Shown here one piece after another: positions 10,504-59,847 of a DNA stretch of 64,000 nucleotides. Position 1 is the first letter of the stretch. Each line of letters begins with the position of its first letter. Source of the DNA: a virus; the IMG/VR virus record IMGVR_UViG_3300023202_000068, positions 64,001 through 128,000 of that record, one strand, 5' to 3'. Under the pieces are notes generated by a model that was given only the letters and a program-made list of their open reading frames with translations, was not told where the DNA came from and did no database searches. Made by a program: the position numbers and the translations under genes.

Positions 10504-12372
10504 TTGGGATATGTAAAGGATATTAGGCAAAACGCTTTTGATTCACAACAGACTTCTCCAGCTTACGTCGTTACCTTCGTGCGATGGTCTAATAGAGACA
10601 CATATAACTATGACAACAACGGACCTCTTGACACTAGAGCGCCACTGGTCGTTGTTAACGATGCTTTAGATATAAATATTTCAAATACAAAACAAGGAAT
10701 GTCCCCGACCTGCTCTATTCAATTAAAAGGTGGAGACCTTAACTACGCAACTGCAGTACATCCAGGCGACTTTGTGATGGTTAATATGTTGAATTGGCCT
10801 AAAGACGCTATGAGAGTTAGACAAAATGCGCTAGCTCGAAAAGCTATAAACAAGGTAGGTGACGGATTTAAGGGTATGTTTAAGATACAAAGTGTTGTAA
10901 AAAATGTAACAACTCAGAAAAACGGAATGAAGACACTCACCTACTCTATTACTGCTGCAGGCTTTACAGAGTTCAACAATACTATTTATTATAACCCAGC
11001 AATTGCCGCTGCTTTTTCAGACAGGGGTACAAACCTATATCAAATACTAATTGGTGAGTTTTACCAGGACAAGTTAAAGACAAATTCTGAAGTTCAAATT
11101 ATCATGAAGGATTTGTTTAAGATATTGTTGGGAAAGTCTAGTAAAGATAGAGATGTGAAGATAAAGAACTTTGGAAATAAGCACTTTAAGGTCCCAACAC
11201 TTCTAGGTCAGCTTTTAGGTAAAAATAAAGCCCAGTATGCAAATGAGATTTATAATTATATCCTAGGTATCTGGACTAACGATACTCAGGCTAATACTAA
11301 TGATTCAAATATAGCTCTAGGCTTTAACCCAAAAATAGAACCAGACCCAGAAGGTAACTTCTTTAGAACACCAAACTCTATCTTGGGTAACAAAGAAGTG
11401 TTTATAGAGAACTGGAATAATTCTACGGCTTGGTCAATATTACAACAAAATCTAAACTCAGTATTAAATGAAATGTATACAACTTACCGTGTAGCTCCAG
11501 ATGGCTCTGTTCAACCCACTGTGGTAGTTAGACAAAAGCCGTTTACTACGAAACATTTTTACAATCAGCGATCTAAGTTAGTACCTAACTATCAACTTAC
11601 TTTATTTGAAGAGCTTCCTAGATGGAAAATATCAGCTAACCTCATGCTACAACAGCAAACAAGTAAGAACGACGCGGCTAGATTTAATTTTGTACAAGTT
11701 TACACAAGATCATTGGCTGATGTTGCTGAGCAAGATATGGCTCAACAGATTTCACAAAACAACTTTGTAGAAGACCCAGGTGATATACAAAGAAATGGAT
11801 TAAGACCATATGTGGTTAGATCTAACTTTGATTTTCCTACGAAGGACCGGAATAAGCGAATTAGGGCACCAGAGTGGGCTAAAATTGTCAGCGACTGGAT
11901 TATTGATGGTCACTTAAAAGAGTCTGGTACTTTTGTATTCTATGGTATTCAAGATCCTATCTCTGTTGGTGACAATATTGAGTTTGATGACATAGTTTAT
12001 CAAATTGAAACTATAAATCACAAGATGAACATAGCTCCTAACGGAACGAAGACTTGGAGAACTACAGTAAATGTTTCATACGGTATGAGTAAAGGATCTT
12101 CTGTTAAAGGCCCTGTTTATGCCAACATGGAACATACGGATGCATACACAGAGCGAATTGAAGACTTTGAAAATGAAAGAATTCTACCAGGTATAGGTGA
12201 TACCCAAGACCTACCAGGTCGATCTTTGGGTGAAGAAACTAAAGAGACTAGGCAAGGTAGCTTCACACCTCCAGATTTAAGAAAGACTAGGCAGAAGACG
12301 CAGGAATCTAATACAGGACAAGACTCAAACTTTCAACAAAATGAAGATGGAAAGTCTAGGAAGAAAACATGA
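10504..12372 (+). CDS. baseplate hub / tail-associated protein
   Basis: follows the tape measure; TTG start; C-terminal ESGTFVFYG..ISVGDNIEF..YQIETINH is typical of hub proteins. Confidence 0.65.
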   Translation: MGYVKDIRQNAFDSQQTSPAYVVTFVRWSNRDTYNYDNNGPLDTRAPLVVVNDALDINISNTKQGMSPTCSIQLKGGDLNYATAVHPGDFVMVNMLNWPKDAMRVRQNALARKAINKVGDGFKGMFKIQSVVKNVTTQKNGMKTLTYSITAAGFTEFNNTIYYNPAIAAAFSDRGTNLYQILIGEFYQDKLKTNSEVQIIMKDLFKILLGKSSKDRDVKIKNFGNKHFKVPTLLGQLLGKNKAQYANEIYNYILGIWTNDTQANTNDSNIALGFNPKIEPDPEGNFFRTPNSILGNKEVFIENWNNSTAWSILQQNLNSVLNEMYTTYRVAPDGSVQPTVVVRQKPFTTKHFYNQRSKLVPNYQLTLFEELPRWKISANLMLQQQTSKNDAARFNFVQVYTRSLADVAEQDMAQQISQNNFVEDPGDIQRNGLRPYVVRSNFDFPTKDRNKRIRAPEWAKIVSDWIIDGHLKESGTFVFYGIQDPISVGDNIEFDDIVYQIETINHKMNIAPNGTKTWRTTVNVSYGMSKGSSVKGPVYANMEHTDAYTERIEDFENERILPGIGDTQDLPGRSLGEETKETRQGSFTPPDLRKTRQKTQESNTGQDSNFQQNEDGKSRKKT

Positions 12373-13418
12373 GTATAAACTACAAACCAATTCTACCAGC
12401 AGGACTTGTTAGGTCTCGAAACAACGAGACAGAGGCAAACTTTGGATTGCGTGTTAAGAATAACATGTCTTTAAAGAACGGTGTGGTTTTAGAGGTATTA
12501 GAAACCAGCGATGAAAAGAACCAATCCAAGCTAGTCCCTGAATACAACGTCATGGTAATTGAGGACGGCAACACAGCTATATATAAGAACATTATTGCAG
12601 TAGACGGTTTTGGTGGTAACGCCGACTACATGCAAAAGAAGTATAGAGCCCCGAAAGACCCTAAGAAGGTTCAACAGTCTGGTTCATTCAAAGATCAAGA
12701 CGGATCAATTGTACTACTACTATGTCTTGACGGTAATGCTGAAAAAGCTGTAATACTTTCATCAATATCCCACCCTAGTAAGATAGAAGACGACATAGTT
12801 CTTTCAAAAGAAAAAGGGCATCACCTAGAGGGTGAGTTCAACGGTCTTTTCTGGTCAATTGATAAGGAAGGTGCGCTGCGCATTGAGTTTAAGTCGGCTA
12901 CAGAGGTTGATGGAACTCCGAAGGACGAAGAAGCAGGCGGAACCTTTTTAACCATAGAAAAAGACGGCTCTGTACAGATTAATACAGGCGAAGACGGCGA
13001 AGTCATTAGAATAGATAAGACTACAAAAGACATCTCCATAACTGCTGGGAATAACGTATCAGCTAAAGCCGAGACAGATGTTAATATTGAGTCTGGAGCT
13101 AACACTGGTGTTACAGTAGGTGCTGACTTAGCGGCAAGTATAAGCGGAAGTGCTGCTATTACTATCGGCTCTAGTCTAGAACTTAAAGCTGAGAGTGATG
13201 TAAAAGTTATATCACCAACTATCGAGATCACAGCAGATACCTTGTTTAAGGTGCAGTCTCAACAAATTAACTTAATGGGTGAAACAGTTTTAGTAGGTGG
13301 AGCAGGCGCTCCTGCGTTAGTACTAAGCACTCAATTTTTAGGTACGGGTAATTTAGGTGCTCCGGTCATCTCACAGGCGATTGGACCATTTAGTAGTAAG
13401 GTGCTAATCGCTACATAG
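12369..13418 (+). CDS. baseplate central spike (gpV/gp5-like)
   Basis: N-terminal OB-like region, C-terminal short beta-repeats (ISITAGNNVSAKAETDVNIESG...). Confidence 0.7.
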   Translation: MSINYKPILPAGLVRSRNNETEANFGLRVKNNMSLKNGVVLEVLETSDEKNQSKLVPEYNVMVIEDGNTAIYKNIIAVDGFGGNADYMQKKYRAPKDPKKVQQSGSFKDQDGSIVLLLCLDGNAEKAVILSSISHPSKIEDDIVLSKEKGHHLEGEFNGLFWSIDKEGALRIEFKSATEVDGTPKDEEAGGTFLTIEKDGSVQINTGEDGEVIRIDKTTKDISITAGNNVSAKAETDVNIESGANTGVTVGADLAASISGSAAITIGSSLELKAESDVKVISPTIEITADTLFKVQSQQINLMGETVLVGGAGAPALVLSTQFLGTGNLGAPVISQAIGPFSSKVLIAT

Positions 13419-13431
13419 GAGGGGAAAGTGA

Positions 13432-13635
13432 ATGAAGCCATACAAAAAAAGACACCATCAATGGAAAATGAATTACGACAAGAAGCCGATGGGCAAAGAA
13501 AGAAGATTTGTGGAGAAAAGTGTGCGTGCCAGTGCAAAACAAGAGATAAAAAGAGAGATGAAAAATGATGACCTATATGATAATAGGGATGCTGATGGTC
13601 GCAGCGTTTCGAATATTCGACAAAAAGACCGTTAG
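13432..13635 (+). CDS. small basic hypothetical protein
   Basis: AGGAGG RBS, Lys/Arg-rich. Confidence 0.55.
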   Translation: MKPYKKRHHQWKMNYDKKPMGKERRFVEKSVRASAKQEIKREMKNDDLYDNRDADGRSVSNIRQKDR

Positions 13636-14071
13636 AGTTGAGTGGCAGGCTATTGGAGGCTTTCTTGGCTTCATGGCTGTTGTAACTTTTTTAAGAATAT
13701 CAATGTACGATTACGTACACATGGCAGACCCAGACTTTATACCAAAAATGCACGGGGCTTTACTTGAAATGCCCAAGATCATGTTTTCACTGGTTTGGTG
13801 GGAGGATGGTTTTTACGTACTCCCTATTGTATTGGCGTTTAGATATCTGCCAAAGAAGATTGCTATAGCTTTCGCAATTTTTATGTCTGCTTGGTTTGGT
13901 ACAGGACACCTTTACCAAGGTATCAGTGGTGTATTTATTACATCATTATATCCATACTTAGTAGCCTATCGCTTTGGAAAGAAGTATGGTTACGGCACGG
14001 TTATGGTCGGTCACGTTCTTTATGACTATATTACATACTACACAGTTATCGTTGCACCACTCTTGCTTTAG
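13565..14071 (+). CDS. CPBP (CAAX/Abi) family intramembrane metalloprotease
   Basis: multiple TM helices; WEDGFY (EExxxR-like), FGTGHLYQG, GHVLYD. Confidence 0.75.
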   Translation: MMTYMIIGMLMVAAFRIFDKKTVRVEWQAIGGFLGFMAVVTFLRISMYDYVHMADPDFIPKMHGALLEMPKIMFSLVWWEDGFYVLPIVLAFRYLPKKIAIAFAIFMSAWFGTGHLYQGISGVFITSLYPYLVAYRFGKKYGYGTVMVGHVLYDYITYYTVIVAPLLL

Positions 14072-14080
14072 TGGTATATT
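14052..14080 (+). promoter_or_regulatory. sigma70-type promoter driving candidate sRNA-1
   Basis: TTGCAC-17 nt-TATATT with extended TG at 14072-14073. Confidence 0.65.
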
Positions 14081-14086
14081 ATAAAT

Positions 14087-14157
14087 AAGACTGGCTTTTT
14101 TCATCTAGTCTCCTTTGGGTAACCCCTGTCGATTTAATGTTGACAGGGGTTTTTTTA
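14087..14157 (+). ncRNA. candidate ~70-nt anti-RBS small RNA (sRNA-1)
   Basis: hairpin AGACTGG/CTAGTCT with loop CTTTTTTCAT, then CCTTTGGGT, then an intrinsic terminator; complementary to AAAGGAGA...ATGAAAAAA of gene 14218. Confidence 0.55.
14121..14156 (+). terminator. intrinsic terminator
   Basis: AACCCCTGTC...GACAGGGGTT followed by a T-run. Confidence 0.8.
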
Positions 14158-14168
14158 TTAGATACGAT
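14140..14168 (+). promoter_or_regulatory. sigma70-type promoter for 14218, overlapping the terminator
   Basis: TTGACA-17 nt-TACGAT. Confidence 0.7.
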
Positions 14169-14217
14169 AGAAATGATGGTATCTAACAATAACAAACATA
14201 TATAAAGGAGAAATTAT

Positions 14218-15165
14218 ATGAAAAAATTACTATTACTGTGTATTACAGTAATGGCAGCAGGTTGTGCTAAAGATGGTACAGTGCGATTGCCAGACCTTGG
14301 TCCTGAAGTAAAACTACTTCAAGCCAATGATGAACTTCAAGACATGAGACTCGATAGTCTTGAAATTAGAGTAACAGATCTTGAGTCGAGAATGTCAGAT
14401 GCAGAAGACGCTATTGACGCTAACGAAGAGAAAATCTCTGAGCTTTGTGATTCTGTTGCAGATCTAGAGGAAGACCTTGACGCATTGAGATCAGAACTTC
14501 GATCAGAAGTTAGAAGTCTTCGTCGTGCCGATAGACAACAGAGACGCACACTACGTAGAAAAGTACGTAAATTGCGCATGAAGTTGTTGGCAGAAATGCG
14601 GTCTCGACAATCTGCAGATCAAGCATTGCAGAGAGAAATCGATAGTTTAGAGCGCACAGTTCGTCGTAACACTGCTATTCAGTCTCTAATCAACGGCTTC
14701 CTAGCATACGGTCTATATCAGACTAATCAGCGTATCGATCAGTTGCAATCTAGAATCGCTAGAGCCCTTTCTGATCTAAATAGTCGTGTTGGAGTTTTAG
14801 AGAGCGAAGTTACTGATATCCAAAATAACATCACAAGAATTGCTTCAGCTATTAGAGGTATTTACACTAGAGTTGGCGAATTGGAAAGCAGCATGATCAG
14901 TGTTGATGAGCAATGTGACGGTAGCTACCTACTCAATACTCCAGACGGTACTTTCGGTATTGGCTATGAAACTCGTGAAGTTACGGAAAACTTTAGCATT
15001 GGCGACACAGTTCAATACTTTGATTGCGAACTTACAGTTCGTGGAAGGTGTTTTAAAGGACAAAATCGATCACTTACTATTAGTGACAGCGGTAGCGTTA
15101 CTTTTGACGTAATCGACGACGTAATGCTTATGGAAATTCCAGCACCTACTTGTGAGGGGGAATAA
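14218..15165 (+). CDS. coiled-coil lipoprotein
   Basis: MKK + lipobox AAGC; long heptad coiled coil; Arg-rich central block; Cys-containing C-terminal head. Confidence 0.75.
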   Translation: MKKLLLLCITVMAAGCAKDGTVRLPDLGPEVKLLQANDELQDMRLDSLEIRVTDLESRMSDAEDAIDANEEKISELCDSVADLEEDLDALRSELRSEVRSLRRADRQQRRTLRRKVRKLRMKLLAEMRSRQSADQALQREIDSLERTVRRNTAIQSLINGFLAYGLYQTNQRIDQLQSRIARALSDLNSRVGVLESEVTDIQNNITRIASAIRGIYTRVGELESSMISVDEQCDGSYLLNTPDGTFGIGYETREVTENFSIGDTVQYFDCELTVRGRCFKGQNRSLTISDSGSVTFDVIDDVMLMEIPAPTCEGE

Positions 15166-15167
15166 TC

Positions 15168-15587
15168 ATGAAAGCACTATTTTTAGCACTCACACTAATG
15201 GTAACTCCAGCTTTTGGGTTTGAAGTACCTAAAGATGCGGTTATTAAGGTTTACGATAAGAGCGGAAAGCAAATTGGTGAAATGAAGCGGTCTGAGTATA
15301 AAGTAGTAAAACTAGGTACATCAAAAGTAAAGATTGTTGAGAAAAGAGTTGAAGTACCTGTTCAAAAGATTCGCAAAGTTAAACACCACAAGTCTGTAAT
15401 TGTACACGCAGGCGCAGGACCAAACGGACTTAGGGCAAGAAATAACGGAGAAGAGTTTGTAGTAAGAGAAAGACAGAGACCAGTCGGAGGATTGACTGGA
15501 TGTGTGTCTGAAAATGGTACTGGTATTTGTGCTAGCGCATTTACTAACGAGACGCTAACTCTCGGTATCAAATTTGATTTTGATTAA
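15168..15587 (+). CDS. secreted protein with C-terminal amphipathic beta-strands (outer-membrane anchor-like)
   Basis: SPI signal (PAFG/F); ends TNETLTLGIKFDFD; paralog of 18478..19023. Confidence 0.6.
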   Translation: MKALFLALTLMVTPAFGFEVPKDAVIKVYDKSGKQIGEMKRSEYKVVKLGTSKVKIVEKRVEVPVQKIRKVKHHKSVIVHAGAGPNGLRARNNGEEFVVRERQRPVGGLTGCVSENGTGICASAFTNETLTLGIKFDFD

Positions 15588-15594
15588 TAAACAT

Positions 15595-15667
15595 GATGCT
15601 GTAGCTCAGTTGGTAGAGCAATGGATTGATAAACCATAGGACGGGGGTTCAAGTCCCTCCAGCATTG
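15595..15667 (+). tRNA. tRNA-Ile(GAT), atypical; CCA not encoded
   Basis: acceptor GATGCTG/CAGCATT, D-arm GCTC/GAGC, anticodon arm ATGGA-TTGATAA-ACCAT, T-arm GGGGG-TTCAAGT-CCCTC. Confidence 0.8.
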
Positions 15668-15770
15668 GTTCTGCCGTTGGCAATTATCTAGGATACTGTA
15701 TTGCTGCAGCCTAGTGAGCCGCAGGTAGTTTAGCCGAACCCATAGGTACAGACAGCAATTGAACTATGGG

Positions 15771-15818
15771 GCTGTGATGTGTTAGGCTTGTAAAAACACC
15801 ATCACAGCACTTTTTTTT
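15771..15818 (+). terminator. intrinsic terminator after the tRNA region
   Basis: GCTGTGATG(TGTT)...(AACAC)CATCACAGC + T8. Confidence 0.8.
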
Positions 15819-15828
15819 AGGAGGAATA

Positions 15829-16113
15829 ATGTATTCAGAATATGGATTAAAAAGCACCGACGAGGTCTTGGAATATATCGAGCGGTACAAGAAAAGACTT
15901 GCCAAGAGAATGACTAGACATAAGGAGTTGTTGAACGATTCGACTCAAGAAAGATTTAAAGACATGCATATGAGGGCTGTTCTGAGTATCAACGCAGAGC
16001 AAACTGCCCTAACTAACGTCAAAAACAAGATTACAGGTGAGTGGAAAAAACTACAAGAAGACTATAAAAAGATACTGGAGGAAGCTGGTGATAATAATAC
16101 GAGGTGTGACTAG
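15829..16113 (+). CDS. hypothetical protein
   Basis: AGGAGG RBS. Confidence 0.65.
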   Translation: MYSEYGLKSTDEVLEYIERYKKRLAKRMTRHKELLNDSTQERFKDMHMRAVLSINAEQTALTNVKNKITGEWKKLQEDYKKILEEAGDNNTRCD

Positions 16114-16288
16114 ACACGCATCAGTAGAGAACAACTTTGAAGATTCAGATGCTGTAAAAGCTGAAGAGTACCAGAACATGTTGCATGAGAATGATTGGGA
16201 TGATGTTAGGTGGATTCACATACCTGGAATGACCTATGAGCAGTACATAAAAGAATATATGAAGAGAATGAACGGAGTGTTTGAATGA
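16088..16288 (+). CDS. hypothetical protein
   Basis: GTG after GGAGG, in frame with ORF 16037..16288. Confidence 0.55.
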   Translation: MIIIRGVTRHASVENNFEDSDAVKAEEYQNMLHENDWDDVRWIHIPGMTYEQYIKEYMKRMNGVFE

Positions 16289-17103
16289 AGATCGAAAAAG
16301 TAAGTATGGAAGATATAAACTTTGGCTTTACCCTCCTTAAGTCTTTTAGGGAAACTGGTTTTGCAATCATTACAGATCACGGTTTAGATAAAGAAACCCT
16401 TAACGAGTATTACGATAAGTGGTATAGGTATTTTTTAAGCGAAGATAAGCACGCAGATTTATCTGGAGAAGACCACTCAGGCTACTTTCCAATGAATAAG
16501 GAAAAAGCCAAAGGCGCTATCGTTGCAGACATGAAAGAGTTCTTCCACTACTACCCATCTCTAGTTAAAGACCCACTGTTCGGTCTTTCCGATATAGTAT
16601 ATAAACAACTTAATCAGATTGCAGAACTTACACTTACTCGCATTGAAGATCAGCTACCTTCACAGATTGCTCAAGGTCTATCAATGCCGCTGTCATGGAT
16701 GATTCAAAACTCAGAAAAAACGCTCCTTAGAGTGTTACACTACCCACCAGTTAAAGATATTCCACAAGGCGCAGTGAGAGCTGCAGAGCATGAGGATATC
16801 AATTTAATCACCATCTTACCTGGTGCTACTGAAATGGGGCTTGAGGTAAAGGCTGCAGACGGCTCCTGGCTTCCTGTAGAAGCCGGTACGGAAGACTTAG
16901 TAGTCAATGTCGGAGATATGCTGCAAGAGGCTACAGGCGGATATCTGAAGTCCACGCCGCACCGTGTAGTTAACGTCGGCATGGAGACATCTAGACTTTC
17001 TTCACCTTTATTTCTCCACCCACGTCCTGAAGTAGTTTTATCTGATAAATACACCGCAGAGTCGTATCTAGATGAAAGACTTAAGGAATTAGGTCTAAAA
17101 TAA
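16285..17103 (+). CDS. isopenicillin-N-synthase-family 2OG-Fe(II) dioxygenase
   Basis: TGFAII DIOX_N-like region, LLRVLHYPP, HED (HxD), VNVGDMLQ, STPHRV (distal His), RLS (RxS). Confidence 0.88.
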   Translation: MKIEKVSMEDINFGFTLLKSFRETGFAIITDHGLDKETLNEYYDKWYRYFLSEDKHADLSGEDHSGYFPMNKEKAKGAIVADMKEFFHYYPSLVKDPLFGLSDIVYKQLNQIAELTLTRIEDQLPSQIAQGLSMPLSWMIQNSEKTLLRVLHYPPVKDIPQGAVRAAEHEDINLITILPGATEMGLEVKAADGSWLPVEAGTEDLVVNVGDMLQEATGGYLKSTPHRVVNVGMETSRLSSPLFLHPRPEVVLSDKYTAESYLDERLKELGLK

Positions 17104-22269: not shown

Positions 22270-22484
22270 GCGGTTCACACTTAATACCAGACGATGATGT
22301 TATTATAACACATGCCTTAGGAGAGTCTAATACCGCTATTAGAGTAGAGGGACTGAAGCAGTGGGTGAAAAACCTACACGTTATCGGTGAAACCCAGGCA
22401 TACCTGAAAGCGCAAGATAAAGAAACCGGAGAAATATTTTTAATTAAACAGGTTGTAGAAATTAAAACACCTGTGGTAGAATAA
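22266..22484 (+). CDS. hypothetical protein
   Basis: ATGA coupling. Confidence 0.6.
   Translation: MSGSHLIPDDDVIITHALGESNTAIRVEGLKQWVKNLHVIGETQAYLKAQDKETGEIFLIKQVVEIKTPVVE
22453..22482 (+). promoter_or_regulatory. extended -10 promoter driving candidate sRNA-2
   Basis: TTGTAG-18 nt-TAGAAT with TG extension (TGTGGTAGAAT). Confidence 0.55.
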
Positions 22485-22487
22485 GTT

Positions 22488-22558
22488 AAGTCCACCCAGT
22501 GTCGCAAGGCACATCCCTCCCTGTATGTGGGTGAGCGAAAGCTCACCTGCATTTTTTA
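22488..22558 (+). ncRNA. candidate ~70-nt structured anti-RBS small RNA or leader (sRNA-2)
   Basis: GTGTC-GCAA-GGCAC hairpin, single-stranded ATCCCTCCC, 12-bp ATGTGGGTGAGC-GAAA-GCTCACCTGCAT hairpin + T-run. Confidence 0.55.
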
Positions 22559-55864: not shown

Positions 55865-57213
55865 TGAGTATTACAGGTAAGAATACAAAATCTATTAGAA
55901 AAAAAGATGTTAAGGAAAGCAAAAGTCTTTCAAGTGGCTTTGTTAAACTTACATTTGCACATGAGGCATCTGCTGGAGAAACTGGAATTAATCTAGGCTC
56001 ATTAGTAACACCTGCAAGCTGGACATCACAAGGAAACACACAACCATCCACACAAAGACTTCTTGAAGCCAAGCTTTTTCAATTCAAAGACAATTTAAAG
56101 ATAGTTTCCTCTCTTCGTGGTGAGTTGATGAAGATTTCATACAGAGTATCTTCTAACTCACAAATTACATTCAACGGATTTGCCGCTGAAGAAGGTGAGA
56201 TATTTGAAGGAACTATAGACTCAAACCCAGTCAGTGGTATCCAGGTAATTGATGCAAAACAGCCAGTTGCCGATGGTGATCTTGCAGATGGAGATACAGA
56301 CTTCCCGATTGGCTTCACAACTAGAACTAATGCAGATCAAATTGTAGTTTTTAGAAACGGACTAGAACAAAAGAGAAACTCAAACAATAGCTCAACCGTT
56401 ACAGACGGCAACTACTACGTTGTAGACAACGGCTCTGGATATGGGTCTCTTATTAGGTTTAACGTAGCTGCTTCTGGTTCTAACGACTATGTTAAAGTTA
56501 CAGCAATCGGTGGTGTTGTAGAAAGCCCCACTAATTCAACTTGGGATGAGCTTGAAAAAGTACAAGGTCAGATTGACGCAATTGTACCTACGGTATCTGC
56601 ACTCGCAGGTGTGCCTGAAACAGACTTTCAAGCCGCACCTAATAATGTTGACCTTAGACAGTTTGGTGCTGTTTTGAATGGGCTTCTAGATGTAAGAGTT
56701 CCTATTGTTTCAGATTGGGTTAGCTTTACACCAACTGGTACATGGACTAATACGACATACAGCGGAAGATGGAGACAGGTTTTAGATCACTACGAAATTG
56801 AGTATGAAATAGATATTACCGGAGCACCTGCTGGTGGAATTCAAGACCTATCAATCCCGGTAGGTGAAAACATTGACTTTACGGGTCTAGCTTATTCAGA
56901 TATAGGAATTAGTGTTGGTTGGGGCACCAGTACAGCAAATGCGCAGTCTTCAGGATTTAATATATATGGCTACATAAATTCAGGATTTGGTGATATTGTA
57001 AGGCTTAGAGCTGAAAGAATTGACGTGAATGGACCAAATGGTGAAGAAACCCCTAGGGAAGACAATTTAGGTAGCGGTGGATATGAAATGAACAGTGTAT
57101 CTAACAACTGGAATTCAAATGACAAGATAAGCCTAAAAGTGACTATACCTATACAAGGTCTCAATTCACACCAAACTCTTAAAGAGCACCTAGAAGATAA
57201 GGGGATTTTATAA
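55864..57213 (+). CDS. tail fibre protein
   Basis: SDWVSFTPTGTW...GRWRQV head-domain-like motif. Confidence 0.65.
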   Translation: MSITGKNTKSIRKKDVKESKSLSSGFVKLTFAHEASAGETGINLGSLVTPASWTSQGNTQPSTQRLLEAKLFQFKDNLKIVSSLRGELMKISYRVSSNSQITFNGFAAEEGEIFEGTIDSNPVSGIQVIDAKQPVADGDLADGDTDFPIGFTTRTNADQIVVFRNGLEQKRNSNNSSTVTDGNYYVVDNGSGYGSLIRFNVAASGSNDYVKVTAIGGVVESPTNSTWDELEKVQGQIDAIVPTVSALAGVPETDFQAAPNNVDLRQFGAVLNGLLDVRVPIVSDWVSFTPTGTWTNTTYSGRWRQVLDHYEIEYEIDITGAPAGGIQDLSIPVGENIDFTGLAYSDIGISVGWGTSTANAQSSGFNIYGYINSGFGDIVRLRAERIDVNGPNGEETPREDNLGSGGYEMNSVSNNWNSNDKISLKVTIPIQGLNSHQTLKEHLEDKGIL

Positions 57214-57710
57214 TGGCTTTGATAAAAATACCGATAATTAATGAAGTAAAAATAGATGCAAGCCAAGTCGGTGACGTTGTAGAGTCTATGCTTACTGAAA
57301 CTCAGTTTCAAGCTATAAGAGGCAGCAACTGGGTATTAATGGATGGGAGAAATGTTGCAGGTACTACTTATGCAAATATCACAGGTAATAGCACAATTCC
57401 AGATGCTAGAGGTGTTGCACTAAGAGGTAAGAACAACGGCAGATCTAATTCTACTGGAAACCAAAGTGGCGATTTAGCATTAGGCACTTATCAAGCAGAT
57501 GAATTTGAATCACACGATCACATTATGAACGGTGAGTATTTTAACTCTACTGGGGCTGCTGCAGGAAACCAATACAATAATCCAAGTAAGGTATCAGGTG
57601 GGGCAGGTGCCACTAACTTTACTTTTAACAGGAATGCAATGGAATCTGAGGGCGGCAACGAAACCAGAATGCGTAACATTACCGTTAACATTTTTATAAA
57701 GGTAGACTAA
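57213..57710 (+). CDS. tail collar domain protein
   Basis: WVLMDGR, IPDARGVALRG, GTYQADEFESHDH, GNETRMRNITVNIFIK. Confidence 0.8.
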   Translation: MALIKIPIINEVKIDASQVGDVVESMLTETQFQAIRGSNWVLMDGRNVAGTTYANITGNSTIPDARGVALRGKNNGRSNSTGNQSGDLALGTYQADEFESHDHIMNGEYFNSTGAAAGNQYNNPSKVSGGAGATNFTFNRNAMESEGGNETRMRNITVNIFIKVD

Positions 57711-57711
57711 T

Positions 57712-58815
57712 ATGAGCTTGACACCGAGACTGGATAAATTAGATCAAAACCTGCTAATTAATGGCAACTTCGCCTTTAATCAAAGAGGCGATGATACGAA
57801 TGTAGACGACAATAGGTATGTATTGGATCGCTGGATTATTCAAAGAGAGAGTGCAGCTTCAACTATTTTAGAGGTTACACAAGAAAGCGGTGATGTACCA
57901 TTAAATTCTAATAGTAGACATTCAATGAAAGTAAATGTTGGCACTGCATCTGGCGCACCGGCAATAGCAGCTAGAAGAGTTAAGCTTTCTCAATATGTTG
58001 AAGGACATATGATGCCTCAAGTAATAGGTAAAAGAGCTAAGTTAAGATTTTGGGTTAAGTCAAATCTAGCACAGACTTTTGCCTTCGGCATAAGGTCAAA
58101 CGGCTCTGGGGTGCACTATTTTTTAACAGAGTACACTATCAATGCAGCAGATACTTGGGAGTTGAAAGAAATATTACTTCCAGAGTTTGTTTCGTCTATT
58201 GATTGGCAGGCAAATACAAACAATAGAGCAGCACTTTTTGATTGGGCTTTAGATGTGGGTACAGATTTTCATGGCGCAACAAACACGGCTTTTCAACCAG
58301 GAACTGCTCAAGCTCCGACAGGCTATGACACTCAGTTCTGTGATACTTTAAATAACTACATGCAAATCGCAGATGTAGTAGTTATGCCATATGAGATTAA
58401 CTCACCGGCTCCAGGTATTGAAGGGTTTACATACGCTGGTAGAAACTATATGGAAGAATTTCAGCTTTGTCAAAGATATCTATATGTTCCGTATGATCCC
58501 GAAGTAGGGTCAATACAACACATCGGTCACGGTAGAAACTTTGCGAGCAATCAGGGTAATATATCTTTAGAGTTTCCAGTAAAAATGAGAGCTGTCCCAA
58601 CTTTGATTACAGGAGGAACAATTTCTGATTTTAAGGCCCATAATGGAACAGGTTCGGGTGACATTAGTATAACCAGTTTTACCCAAGGAAACACAGGGCC
58701 CTTAAGGTCGAATATAAATGTATTCGCTTCTCCAATGAATGCTGGAGGGGCCTGTACTACCAGAAGAATCCCCACAGGCACTCCAGGCTTTTTATACTTT
58801 GACGCAGAACTATAA
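57712..58815 (+). CDS. receptor-binding/tail fibre protein, paralog B
   Basis: NLLINGNFAFNQRG...EFQLCQRY...MRAVP...DAEL. Confidence 0.75.
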   Translation: MSLTPRLDKLDQNLLINGNFAFNQRGDDTNVDDNRYVLDRWIIQRESAASTILEVTQESGDVPLNSNSRHSMKVNVGTASGAPAIAARRVKLSQYVEGHMMPQVIGKRAKLRFWVKSNLAQTFAFGIRSNGSGVHYFLTEYTINAADTWELKEILLPEFVSSIDWQANTNNRAALFDWALDVGTDFHGATNTAFQPGTAQAPTGYDTQFCDTLNNYMQIADVVVMPYEINSPAPGIEGFTYAGRNYMEEFQLCQRYLYVPYDPEVGSIQHIGHGRNFASNQGNISLEFPVKMRAVPTLITGGTISDFKAHNGTGSGDISITSFTQGNTGPLRSNINVFASPMNAGGACTTRRIPTGTPGFLYFDAEL

Positions 58816-58824
58816 GGAATTATT

Positions 58825-59847
58825 ATGGCTAAAACACCAGAAATTGACTTAAGACAAGATTATCAAAGAAACTATATTATCAATGGTAATTTTGACTTTT
58901 GGCAAAGAGGAACAGGGCCTATTTCTGTATCCGGTGCGGCCAACCCTACCTATGCTGCTGATAGATTCTTTATAGCAGGTAATGGTGCTAGTGCTGTTGA
59001 AATGAATAGGTCTACAGACATACCTACAGAAGCTGAATCTAAATTTCAATCAAACTATTCCCTATTTGTAGATGTAACTACGGCAGACGCATCACCGACA
59101 TCGGGAGATCGCAGGTGGATGGGATACAGAGTTGAAGGTACTGACATGCAGGGGTTACTTGGCAAAAACATATCTGTATCTTTTTGGGTAAAGGCCACTA
59201 AGGCTGGGATTAATTCTTTGGCGTTTAGAAATCAATCTACAGATAGATCATACGTAGCCGAATACACCATCAACTCTCCAAATACTTGGGAAAATAAAGT
59301 TATAACTATCCCTTTCGTAAACTCAGGATCTTGGGATGTAGATAACACATTGGGGTTGGAAATAGCATGGCCATTAATGCCGGATGCTGCGCTTGAAACA
59401 TCAACCATTGGTGAGTGGCAAAGTGGGAACTTTTTAGCATCTTCAAATCAAGTAAATCACATGGACAGCACCGCTAACGAATTCAGAATCGCACAAGTTC
59501 AACTTATAGAAGGGTCTGAAGATCTTCCGTTTAGGAGAGCTGGTAGGAACATTGGTGAAGAATTTTCAATGTGCCAAAGATACTTTCAGAAAGTGGTAGG
59601 TCGTTGGTATGGAGTTGCTCCAAATACAGGTAGAACTAGAAACAATGTTACTTACGCTACCCAAATGAGGGCTATACCTACAGCAACAAAAGACGCAGCA
59701 CTATCAACAAATAGCACAAGGTATCCTGCTGGAAATTCTGAAGTAGCAAACATAGATGAATCTTCAGTCATGACTCGTTGGATTCCCAACAGTACTGGTG
59801 GAAATGATGGGTGGTCTTTATTTCTTGATTTAGAAGCAGAACTTTAA
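58825..59847 (+). CDS. receptor-binding/tail fibre protein, paralog C
   Basis: NYIINGNFDFWQRG...EFSMCQRYF...MRAIP...EAEL. Confidence 0.75.
   Translation: MAKTPEIDLRQDYQRNYIINGNFDFWQRGTGPISVSGAANPTYAADRFFIAGNGASAVEMNRSTDIPTEAESKFQSNYSLFVDVTTADASPTSGDRRWMGYRVEGTDMQGLLGKNISVSFWVKATKAGINSLAFRNQSTDRSYVAEYTINSPNTWENKVITIPFVNSGSWDVDNTLGLEIAWPLMPDAALETSTIGEWQSGNFLASSNQVNHMDSTANEFRIAQVQLIEGSEDLPFRRAGRNIGEEFSMCQRYFQKVVGRWYGVAPNTGRTRNNVTYATQMRAIPTATKDAALSTNSTRYPAGNSEVANIDESSVMTRWIPNSTGGNDGWSLFLDLEAEL

Follow-up and report, generated by a model that had tools for sequence, protein, structure and literature searches.

A promoter-terminator unit at a gene-module junction of an IMG/VR phage genome as a candidate antisense RNA to the start region of the adjacent gene

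We analysed a 64,000-nucleotide (nt) stretch of viral DNA (hereafter the window), taken from an IMG/VR phage contig of 153.5 kb (bases 64001-128000; contig completeness about 96%), and focused on a compact unit located between the last gene of a baseplate module and the lipoprotein gene that starts at position 14218. We found that a short segment of this unit is complementary, beyond chance, to the Shine-Dalgarno (SD) sequence and start codon of gene 14218, and that the arrangement recurs in related phages. From these sequences and their modelled folds, we consider that the unit most likely functions as an anti-start-region RNA, which would occlude the neighbouring start region both in trans and in cis; our confidence in this function stands about midway between acceptance and rejection. 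The parts of the unit and its two flanking genes are the following.

13565-14071, plus strand: upstream gene, encoding a multi-pass membrane protein of 168 amino acids (aa); last gene of the baseplate module, with its TAG stop codon at 14069-14071
14052-14080, plus strand: predicted small-RNA promoter, with TTGCAC at 14052-14057, a 17-nt spacer and the extended -10 TGgTATATT abutting the stop codon (TG at 14072-73 and TATATT at 14075-14080, as read from the sequence)
14087-14157, plus strand: predicted RNA of about 71 nt, made up of a 5' hairpin, a single-stranded anti-SD stretch and the terminator
14088-14111, plus strand: weak hairpin of 7 base pairs (bp), in which arms at 14088-14094 (5') and 14105-14111 (3') flank a 10-nt loop at 14095-14104
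14109-14116, plus strand: anti-SD stretch TCTCCTTT, mostly unpaired; conserved core of the unit
14121-14156, plus strand: strong intrinsic terminator of 13 pairs, with its stem at 14121-14151 and a T7 run at 14150-14156
14140-14168, plus strand: predicted proximal promoter of gene 14218, with TTGACA at 14140-14145, 17 nt and TACGAT at 14163-14168; it matches the consensus at 10 of 12 positions
14204-14226, plus strand: start region of gene 14218 and proposed pairing partner, with the SD AAAGGAGA at 14204-14211 and ATGAAAAAA at 14218-14226
14218-15165, plus strand: gene 14218, encoding a 315-aa coiled-coil lipoprotein; next gene after the RNA unit

An earlier reading of the window (the original prediction) had described the promoter, the hairpin and the terminator, and we found all three in place. 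It had also placed the -35 of the next promoter within the terminator, and this TTGACA (14140-14145) does sit inside the descending (3') arm of the stem. As read from the sequence, the terminator closes both the baseplate operon and the small RNA. The antiparallel complementarity of 9 + 8 nt to the SD and start of gene 14218, on which the original prediction was built, proved exact, with the 10-nt loop of the hairpin being complementary to the AUG and the next six bases of the gene. A partial match to the start of gene 18478, also part of that reading, is real too.

The fit between the two segments stands out in the genome. When the start region of gene 14218 was compared with 34-nt windows from both strands (n = 18,060), only its own true antisense out-paired positions 14087-14120. 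This segment is the best non-self genomic partner of the start region, and the complementarity between the two is beyond chance.

For the comparative analysis, we gathered about 40 loci using homologs of the 168-aa protein (the anchor) and profile scans. Two clades carry the unit, namely the window's own, at 62-70% identity, and a second one, about 33% identical to the anchor protein of the window. Many distant relatives are uninformative because their next gene overlaps the stop codon, so that no spacer follows the anchor gene. Where the unit is present, a recurrent order was observed: an extended -10 located at the stop codon or overlapping it, a body of 70-175 nt, an exposed CTCCT(T), a strong intrinsic terminator and a second promoter followed by a gene with an AAGGAG-type SD. 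The full chain is found in the window's locus (WIN) and in L002, L008, L009, L022, L024, L033, L035, L037, L038, L039 and L041, and the same loci, with L003 in the place of L009, have the extended -10 in the stated position relative to the stop codon. The second clade ends the anchor gene with TAA, TAG or TGA, yet TGnTAnnnT is kept, and where the hexamer extends beyond the stop codon the T at its end is non-coding. The body has no conserved open frame on either strand. As an arrangement of signals, the self-contained unit of about 70 nt put forward by the original prediction, running from promoter to terminator, holds up and is conserved.

An unbiased count of 6-mers in the homologous spacers identified CTCCTT as the most widespread one. 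Of 18 units, 8 have it, where 0.7 would be expected, and 11 have the shorter CTCCT, with none of 20,000 shuffles as high in either case; AGGAG, on this strand, was found in none of the 18 units. The CTCCT(T) seed is mostly unpaired and complementary to the downstream SD. In the alignments the promoter, the terminator (with compensatory changes in its stem) and the second promoter are conserved, and the RNA body is divergent except for the motif. Homologous terminators were identified in L004, L009 and L015. A scan of IMG/VR with the terminator pattern returned 17 loci, in none of which the anchor gene is present. The embedding of a TTGACA -35 of the next promoter in the terminator (14121-14168 in the window) is also seen in L004/L015, L009 and L011/L021. 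Moreover, in L035, L037, L038, L039 and L041, of the second clade, an extra small hairpin (CCTTG, a loop of 6-7 nt, CAAGG) follows the anti-SD stretch and precedes the terminator by about 40 nt; the clade of the window lacks it.

The comparative data suggest that the seed tracks the start region of the neighbouring gene. When the predicted RNAs of 12 loci were matched with all 12 of the downstream start regions (a 12 x 12 matrix), own pairs beat permuted ones by cofold energy (p = 0.006) and were also favoured by duplex energy (p = 0.037); the control, in which the upstream gene's start region was used instead, gave p = 0.59. Complementarity to both the AUG and the SD in collinear order amounts to 9 + 8 nt in the window, 6 + 8 in L024, 5 + 8 in L033 and, by reading, 4 + 7 in L038. 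Covariation in related phages had been named in the original prediction as a check on the pairing, and we observed it: the bases that follow GGAG and precede CUCC change in concert, the pair being A:U in WIN, L033 and L002 and U:A in L022, L024, L038 and L041. L033 and L024, which differ in this pair, have the same downstream gene.

The original prediction did not consider that the segment could act on the very transcript that carries it. The predicted fold of a read-through RNA (14087-14245; -45.1 kcal/mol, z -5.6) pairs 14096-14117 with the SD and AUG of gene 14218 and encloses the terminator hairpin, whereas the leader made from the proximal promoter is essentially unstructured, with its start region open. 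The mean unpaired probability of the SD is accordingly 0.27 in the long RNA versus 0.82 in the short one. The same cis pairing is part of the minimum-energy fold at 6 of 12 loci, in both clades. Occlusion in cis of read-through transcripts is thus supported by the modelled folds, which favour it at least as well as action in trans. In L002 (L002:3610-3665), a second anti-SD (ATCTCCT) is located in the spacer of the downstream promoter and is the perfect complement of the AGGAGAT of that gene; judging from its position, it would be present only in read-through transcripts and would be a second cis-occlusion arm in that phage.

Based on these findings, we propose the following mechanism. The unit would be a small non-coding transcription unit placed where the operon of baseplate and CPBP-like genes meets the next gene module. 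From the extended -10 promoter abutting the stop codon, an RNA would be made that starts near 14087 and, owing to the strong terminator, ends near 14156. Since transcripts of the upstream operon would stop at the same terminator, they would carry the same 3' segment. The open segment 14096-14116, consisting of an anti-AUG, a short spacer and an anti-SD, would represent an antisense image fitting the start region of gene 14218. In trans, the free RNA of about 70 nt may pair with messenger RNAs (mRNAs) from the proximal promoter, which is located between the two complementary segments, and translation would fall; in cis, transcripts passing the terminator may fold back on themselves. Gene 14218 would then be translated only from transcripts of its own promoter, and how abundant the small RNA is would set the level.

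Several observations weigh against this model. All the transcript boundaries, pairings and effects are predictions from sequence. The -35 of the putative small-RNA promoter matches TTGACA at only 3 of 6 positions, and a consensus scan misses the site; we note that TTGCAA is the -35 of the likely early promoters of this phage. Extended -10 motifs are not enriched genome-wide (41 seen, about 54 expected), so that the support for this promoter comes only from the comparative data. The 5' hairpin alone folds with -6.4 kcal/mol (z = -0.66) and is equalled by 49 of 200 shuffles; the low energy of the 72-nt unit (-27.5 kcal/mol, z = -5.4) is due to the terminator. Among the relatives, L003 keeps the promoter without the terminator, which implies that there the promoter drives the next gene directly, and L004, L005 and L007 keep the terminator without a clear promoter or motif. 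The downstream gene is poorly matched in L002, L009, L035, L037 and L040, which show little specific fit, and a permutation test on the longest exact complement found no cognate signal among the 12 loci (p = 0.28). In addition, the loci are phylogenetically related, so that p values based on shuffling overstate their independence and represent upper bounds on significance.

The ranking of targets in the phage's own genome adds to these points, with gene 14218 only 25th to 36th of 204. The original prediction of a trans repressor is thus partly supported: an exposed pyrimidine stretch does mirror the SD and AUG of gene 14218, but the match is not private to this gene, the seed being a near-generic image of a start region. 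Considering that the cognate tests are positive and that the target rank and the exact-match test are weak, we conclude that the seed is a near-consensus image of a start region which is, on average, tuned to the neighbouring gene.

Could the cis arm alone account for the data? On that account the stretch would be the 3' untranslated region (UTR) of the baseplate operon and would silence the next gene on transcripts escaping the terminator, the promoter-like motif being irrelevant or serving some other purpose. Such insulation agrees with a start region that is paired in the read-through fold and open in the leader of the proximal promoter, with the recurrence of this pairing at 6 of 12 loci, and with the adjacency and cognate fit, which are exactly what a cis mechanism requires; the precedent of the T4 genes e, soc, 49 and I-TevI is also well documented (PMC3014915). 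Yet it gives no reason for both clades to retain an extended -10 at the stop codon, with one base that falls outside the coding frame, and the terminator is so strong that little read-through RNA is expected. We regard a purely cis-acting element as rather unlikely. A broader role, as a general anti-SD small RNA acting on many phage or host mRNAs of the AAGGAG type, would make the position beside gene 14218 incidental. The seed indeed comes close to a consensus start region in reverse complement, the start region of gene 14218 is outscored by dozens of others in the genome, the downstream gene varies among relatives while the motif stays, and the exact-match test lacks a cognate signal. The tests based on energy, on the other hand, are positive with a negative upstream-gene control, the flank of the motif covaries with the adjacent SD, and, within the genome, this AT-rich start region has its best partner in the segment. 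Such a general role appears to us unlikely.

The stretch could also be an ordinary terminator spacer, in which the motif would be present by chance or composition, or would be the ribosome-binding site (RBS) of a small gene on the other strand, which adds one more feature to consider:

13958-14104, minus strand: frame of 48 codons behind a reverse-strand SD-ATG look-alike; judged to be no gene

The minus strand here reads a perfect SD, a 4-nt spacer, an ATG and the 48-codon frame, and this is the sole SD-ATG site of its kind on the minus strand of the 60-kb block of plus-strand genes; from base composition, we estimate about 1.6 such sites per 60 kb, as the chance version would have it. However, the frame overlaps the conserved 3' end of a plus-strand gene and no conserved minus-strand promoter was found for it, whereas chance is countered by the enrichment of the motif and by its bracketing between a promoter and a terminator on the plus strand. 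We consider a mere spacer quite improbable. As for the minus-strand gene itself, we rejected it, given that the corresponding frames in relatives have 28, 17, 10, 6, 2 or 0 codons and no protein is conserved. We likewise abandoned the type-I toxin-antitoxin logic that the original prediction had entertained: the target is a lipoprotein of 315 aa rather than a small hydrophobic toxin (under about 60 aa), and the downstream genes of the relatives are unrelated to the lipoprotein.

With a dual anti-start-region RNA as the preferred reading, we compared the unit with known systems. No Rfam family reached its gathering threshold in this region of the window or in 14 related loci; the best sub-threshold match was PyrR (28.3 bits versus 54), and the toxic small RNA of Betaproteobacteria, RF02278, scored 18.5 bits against a gathering score of 50. 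The closest phage counterparts are the c4 RNA of P1/P7, encoded in the immI region, and the sar RNA of P22, small phage RNAs that pair around the RBS of a nearby gene and block its translation (PMC12197685). The unit shares no sequence or structural homology with either of them. The c4 RNA is encoded on the same strand as its target and upstream of it. This is also the geometry seen here, where an RNA on the same strand lies upstream of its proposed target and is complementary to the RBS of the downstream gene. Yet c4 is processed from the transcript of its own target and governs an antirepressor and immunity, whereas the unit has its own predicted promoter and a terminator between the RNA and the target. 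Furthermore, the unit belongs to a lytic-type large phage, its target genes differ between relatives, and its neighbours are a baseplate module, a lipoprotein and an oxygenase instead of an immunity (antirepressor) operon.

Long transcripts of the T4 genes e, soc, 49 and I-TevI have their SD and/or AUG paired to an upstream segment, and a proximal promoter located between the two arms gives rise to short transcripts that are open and translated (PMC3014915). By prediction, the same holds here: the start region is paired in the long transcript and free in the short one, and the promoter at 14140-14168, with its match to the consensus, lies between the arms at 14096-14116 and 14204-14226. In T4, however, the arms make up a compact local hairpin; no terminator separates them, and the 5' arm lacks a dedicated promoter. 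In our unit the arms are about 90 nt apart and enclose a strong terminator, and the 5' arm has a conserved promoter of its own.

Outside phages, the enterobacterial DapZ and MicL are small RNAs of the 3' UTR type, which are transcribed from a promoter of their own, placed where the upstream coding sequence ends, and share the terminator of the mRNA. Similarly, the unit has a predicted promoter at or inside the end of the upstream gene, a shared terminator and a short seed that would act on an RBS; DapZ and MicL, in contrast, regulate distant host mRNAs via Hfq, while the best-supported partner here is the adjacent gene and no chaperone is known. Pairing of unpaired C/U-rich motifs with a GGAG-type SD, as proposed here, is common to the RsaE/RoxS class, the csRNAs, LhrC and RF02278, although the motif of the unit consists of CUCCUU plus an anti-AUG, as opposed to the UCCC repeats of those pyrimidine-rich anti-SD small RNAs. 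Finally, experiments in the jumbo phages 201phi2-1 and phiKZ have revealed short units of no known function that lie directly ahead of a gene and in which a termination site comes right after a start site (PMC11512511). These phages and sequences are unrelated to ours and no anti-SD logic was reported for them, and in our case a second promoter follows the terminator. By analogy, we conclude that the unit resembles known anti-RBS RNAs and T4-type occlusion in its predicted action, is homologous to none of them, and joins their features in an interlocked promoter-terminator-promoter arrangement. It is set apart by how tightly it is linked to the adjacent gene and by a dual geometry, in cis and in trans.

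The design is present twice in this genome. Only about six strong intrinsic terminators were found in the 153 kb, and ahead of two, those at 14123 and 22526, there is an extended -10 together with an anti-SD stretch. The second unit spans 22470-22557 of the window and consists of the extended -10 TGTGGTAGAAT, an exposed ATCCCTCCC and a strong terminator at 22526-22557; the gene following it has the ribosome-binding site GGGAAGGAT. Given this second unit, the design could be a general phage device that sets translation at module junctions.

Myxococcus phage Mx1 is the only relative we found among GenBank phages, through a 622-aa protein with 27% identity, and a scan of genome contigs gave a single distant match, to a metagenome-assembled genome (MAG) of Deltaproteobacteria. 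The kinship with Mx1 and this one MAG match are hints to the host. It is possible, and we advance it tentatively, that large Mx1-like phages carry, where the structural module borders on the next one, a gatekeeper RNA that is locked in position, re-tunable, and active both in trans and in cis. In such phages the unit would terminate the late operon, its terminator would host the -35 of the next promoter, and evolution would re-match the seed to whichever gene arrives downstream.

Regulatory RNAs have hardly been explored in lytic and uncultured phages. With a terminator, two promoters and an antisense seed interlocked within about 200 bp, the unit offers a compact case from which clear predictions for mutants follow. 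If our model is correct, antisense control of the c4 type and transcript-specific RBS occlusion of the T4 type would be united in one element. The element would, in addition, be a small portable part with which translation could be insulated between operons.

With regard to the genomic context, the plus strand carries nearly all the genes of the first 60 kb of the window, and baseplate-like genes lie upstream of the gene that encodes the 168-aa membrane protein. The latter has homologs at 52-70% identity and represents a conserved phage family, some members of which show PF02517 (CPBP/Rce1-like) signals; judged by these matches in relatives, which range from weak to clear, the protein is CPBP/Rce1-like. 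The invariant columns in an alignment of eight sequences include W-W-E-D, G-H (then Y-Q-G) and an H near the C-terminus. Neither a near-identity search of GenBank phages with 12000-17000 nor a tblastn search of the same phages with the two flanking proteins gave a match; scans of IMG/VR with the two flanking proteins as single queries also failed to match, and profile queries were required.

Downstream, the lipoprotein gene is followed by a gene for a 139-aa protein, a transfer RNA (tRNA) gene, tRNA-Ile, and a gene for a 2OG-Fe(II) oxygenase. In the relatives L002, L003 and L007, a homolog of the open reading frame at 16037-16288 of the window comes directly after the unit. In the window, about 1.8 kb intervene (14218-16036), comprising the lipoprotein gene 14218, gene 15168, tRNA-Ile and gene 15829, and by this comparison the stretch looks like an inserted cassette. 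The seed of the RNA fits the start of gene 14218 despite the inserted appearance of its cassette.

Two further elements lie in the same phage genome, outside the window. At 57702-58877 of the contig (window -6298 to -5123) there are three near-identical, likely early promoters, each with TTGCAA inside a near-palindrome, 17 nt and an extended -10, and each followed by the ribosome-binding site TATAGGGAGG. The other is a non-coding element of about 230-330 nt, located at 56758-56992 of the contig (window -7242 to -7008; L051:100-350), which is shared with L004 (3565-3835) and L005 (3605-3935). It occupies differing genomic positions, being placed directly after the studied terminator in L004 and L005, and no Rfam family was found for it in either of these two loci. 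A long-range helix closes its predicted structure, and RNAalifold, run on the three sequences, gave at least one change on both sides in 16 of 38 predicted pairs. On this modelled structure, the element may be an undescribed structured phage RNA.

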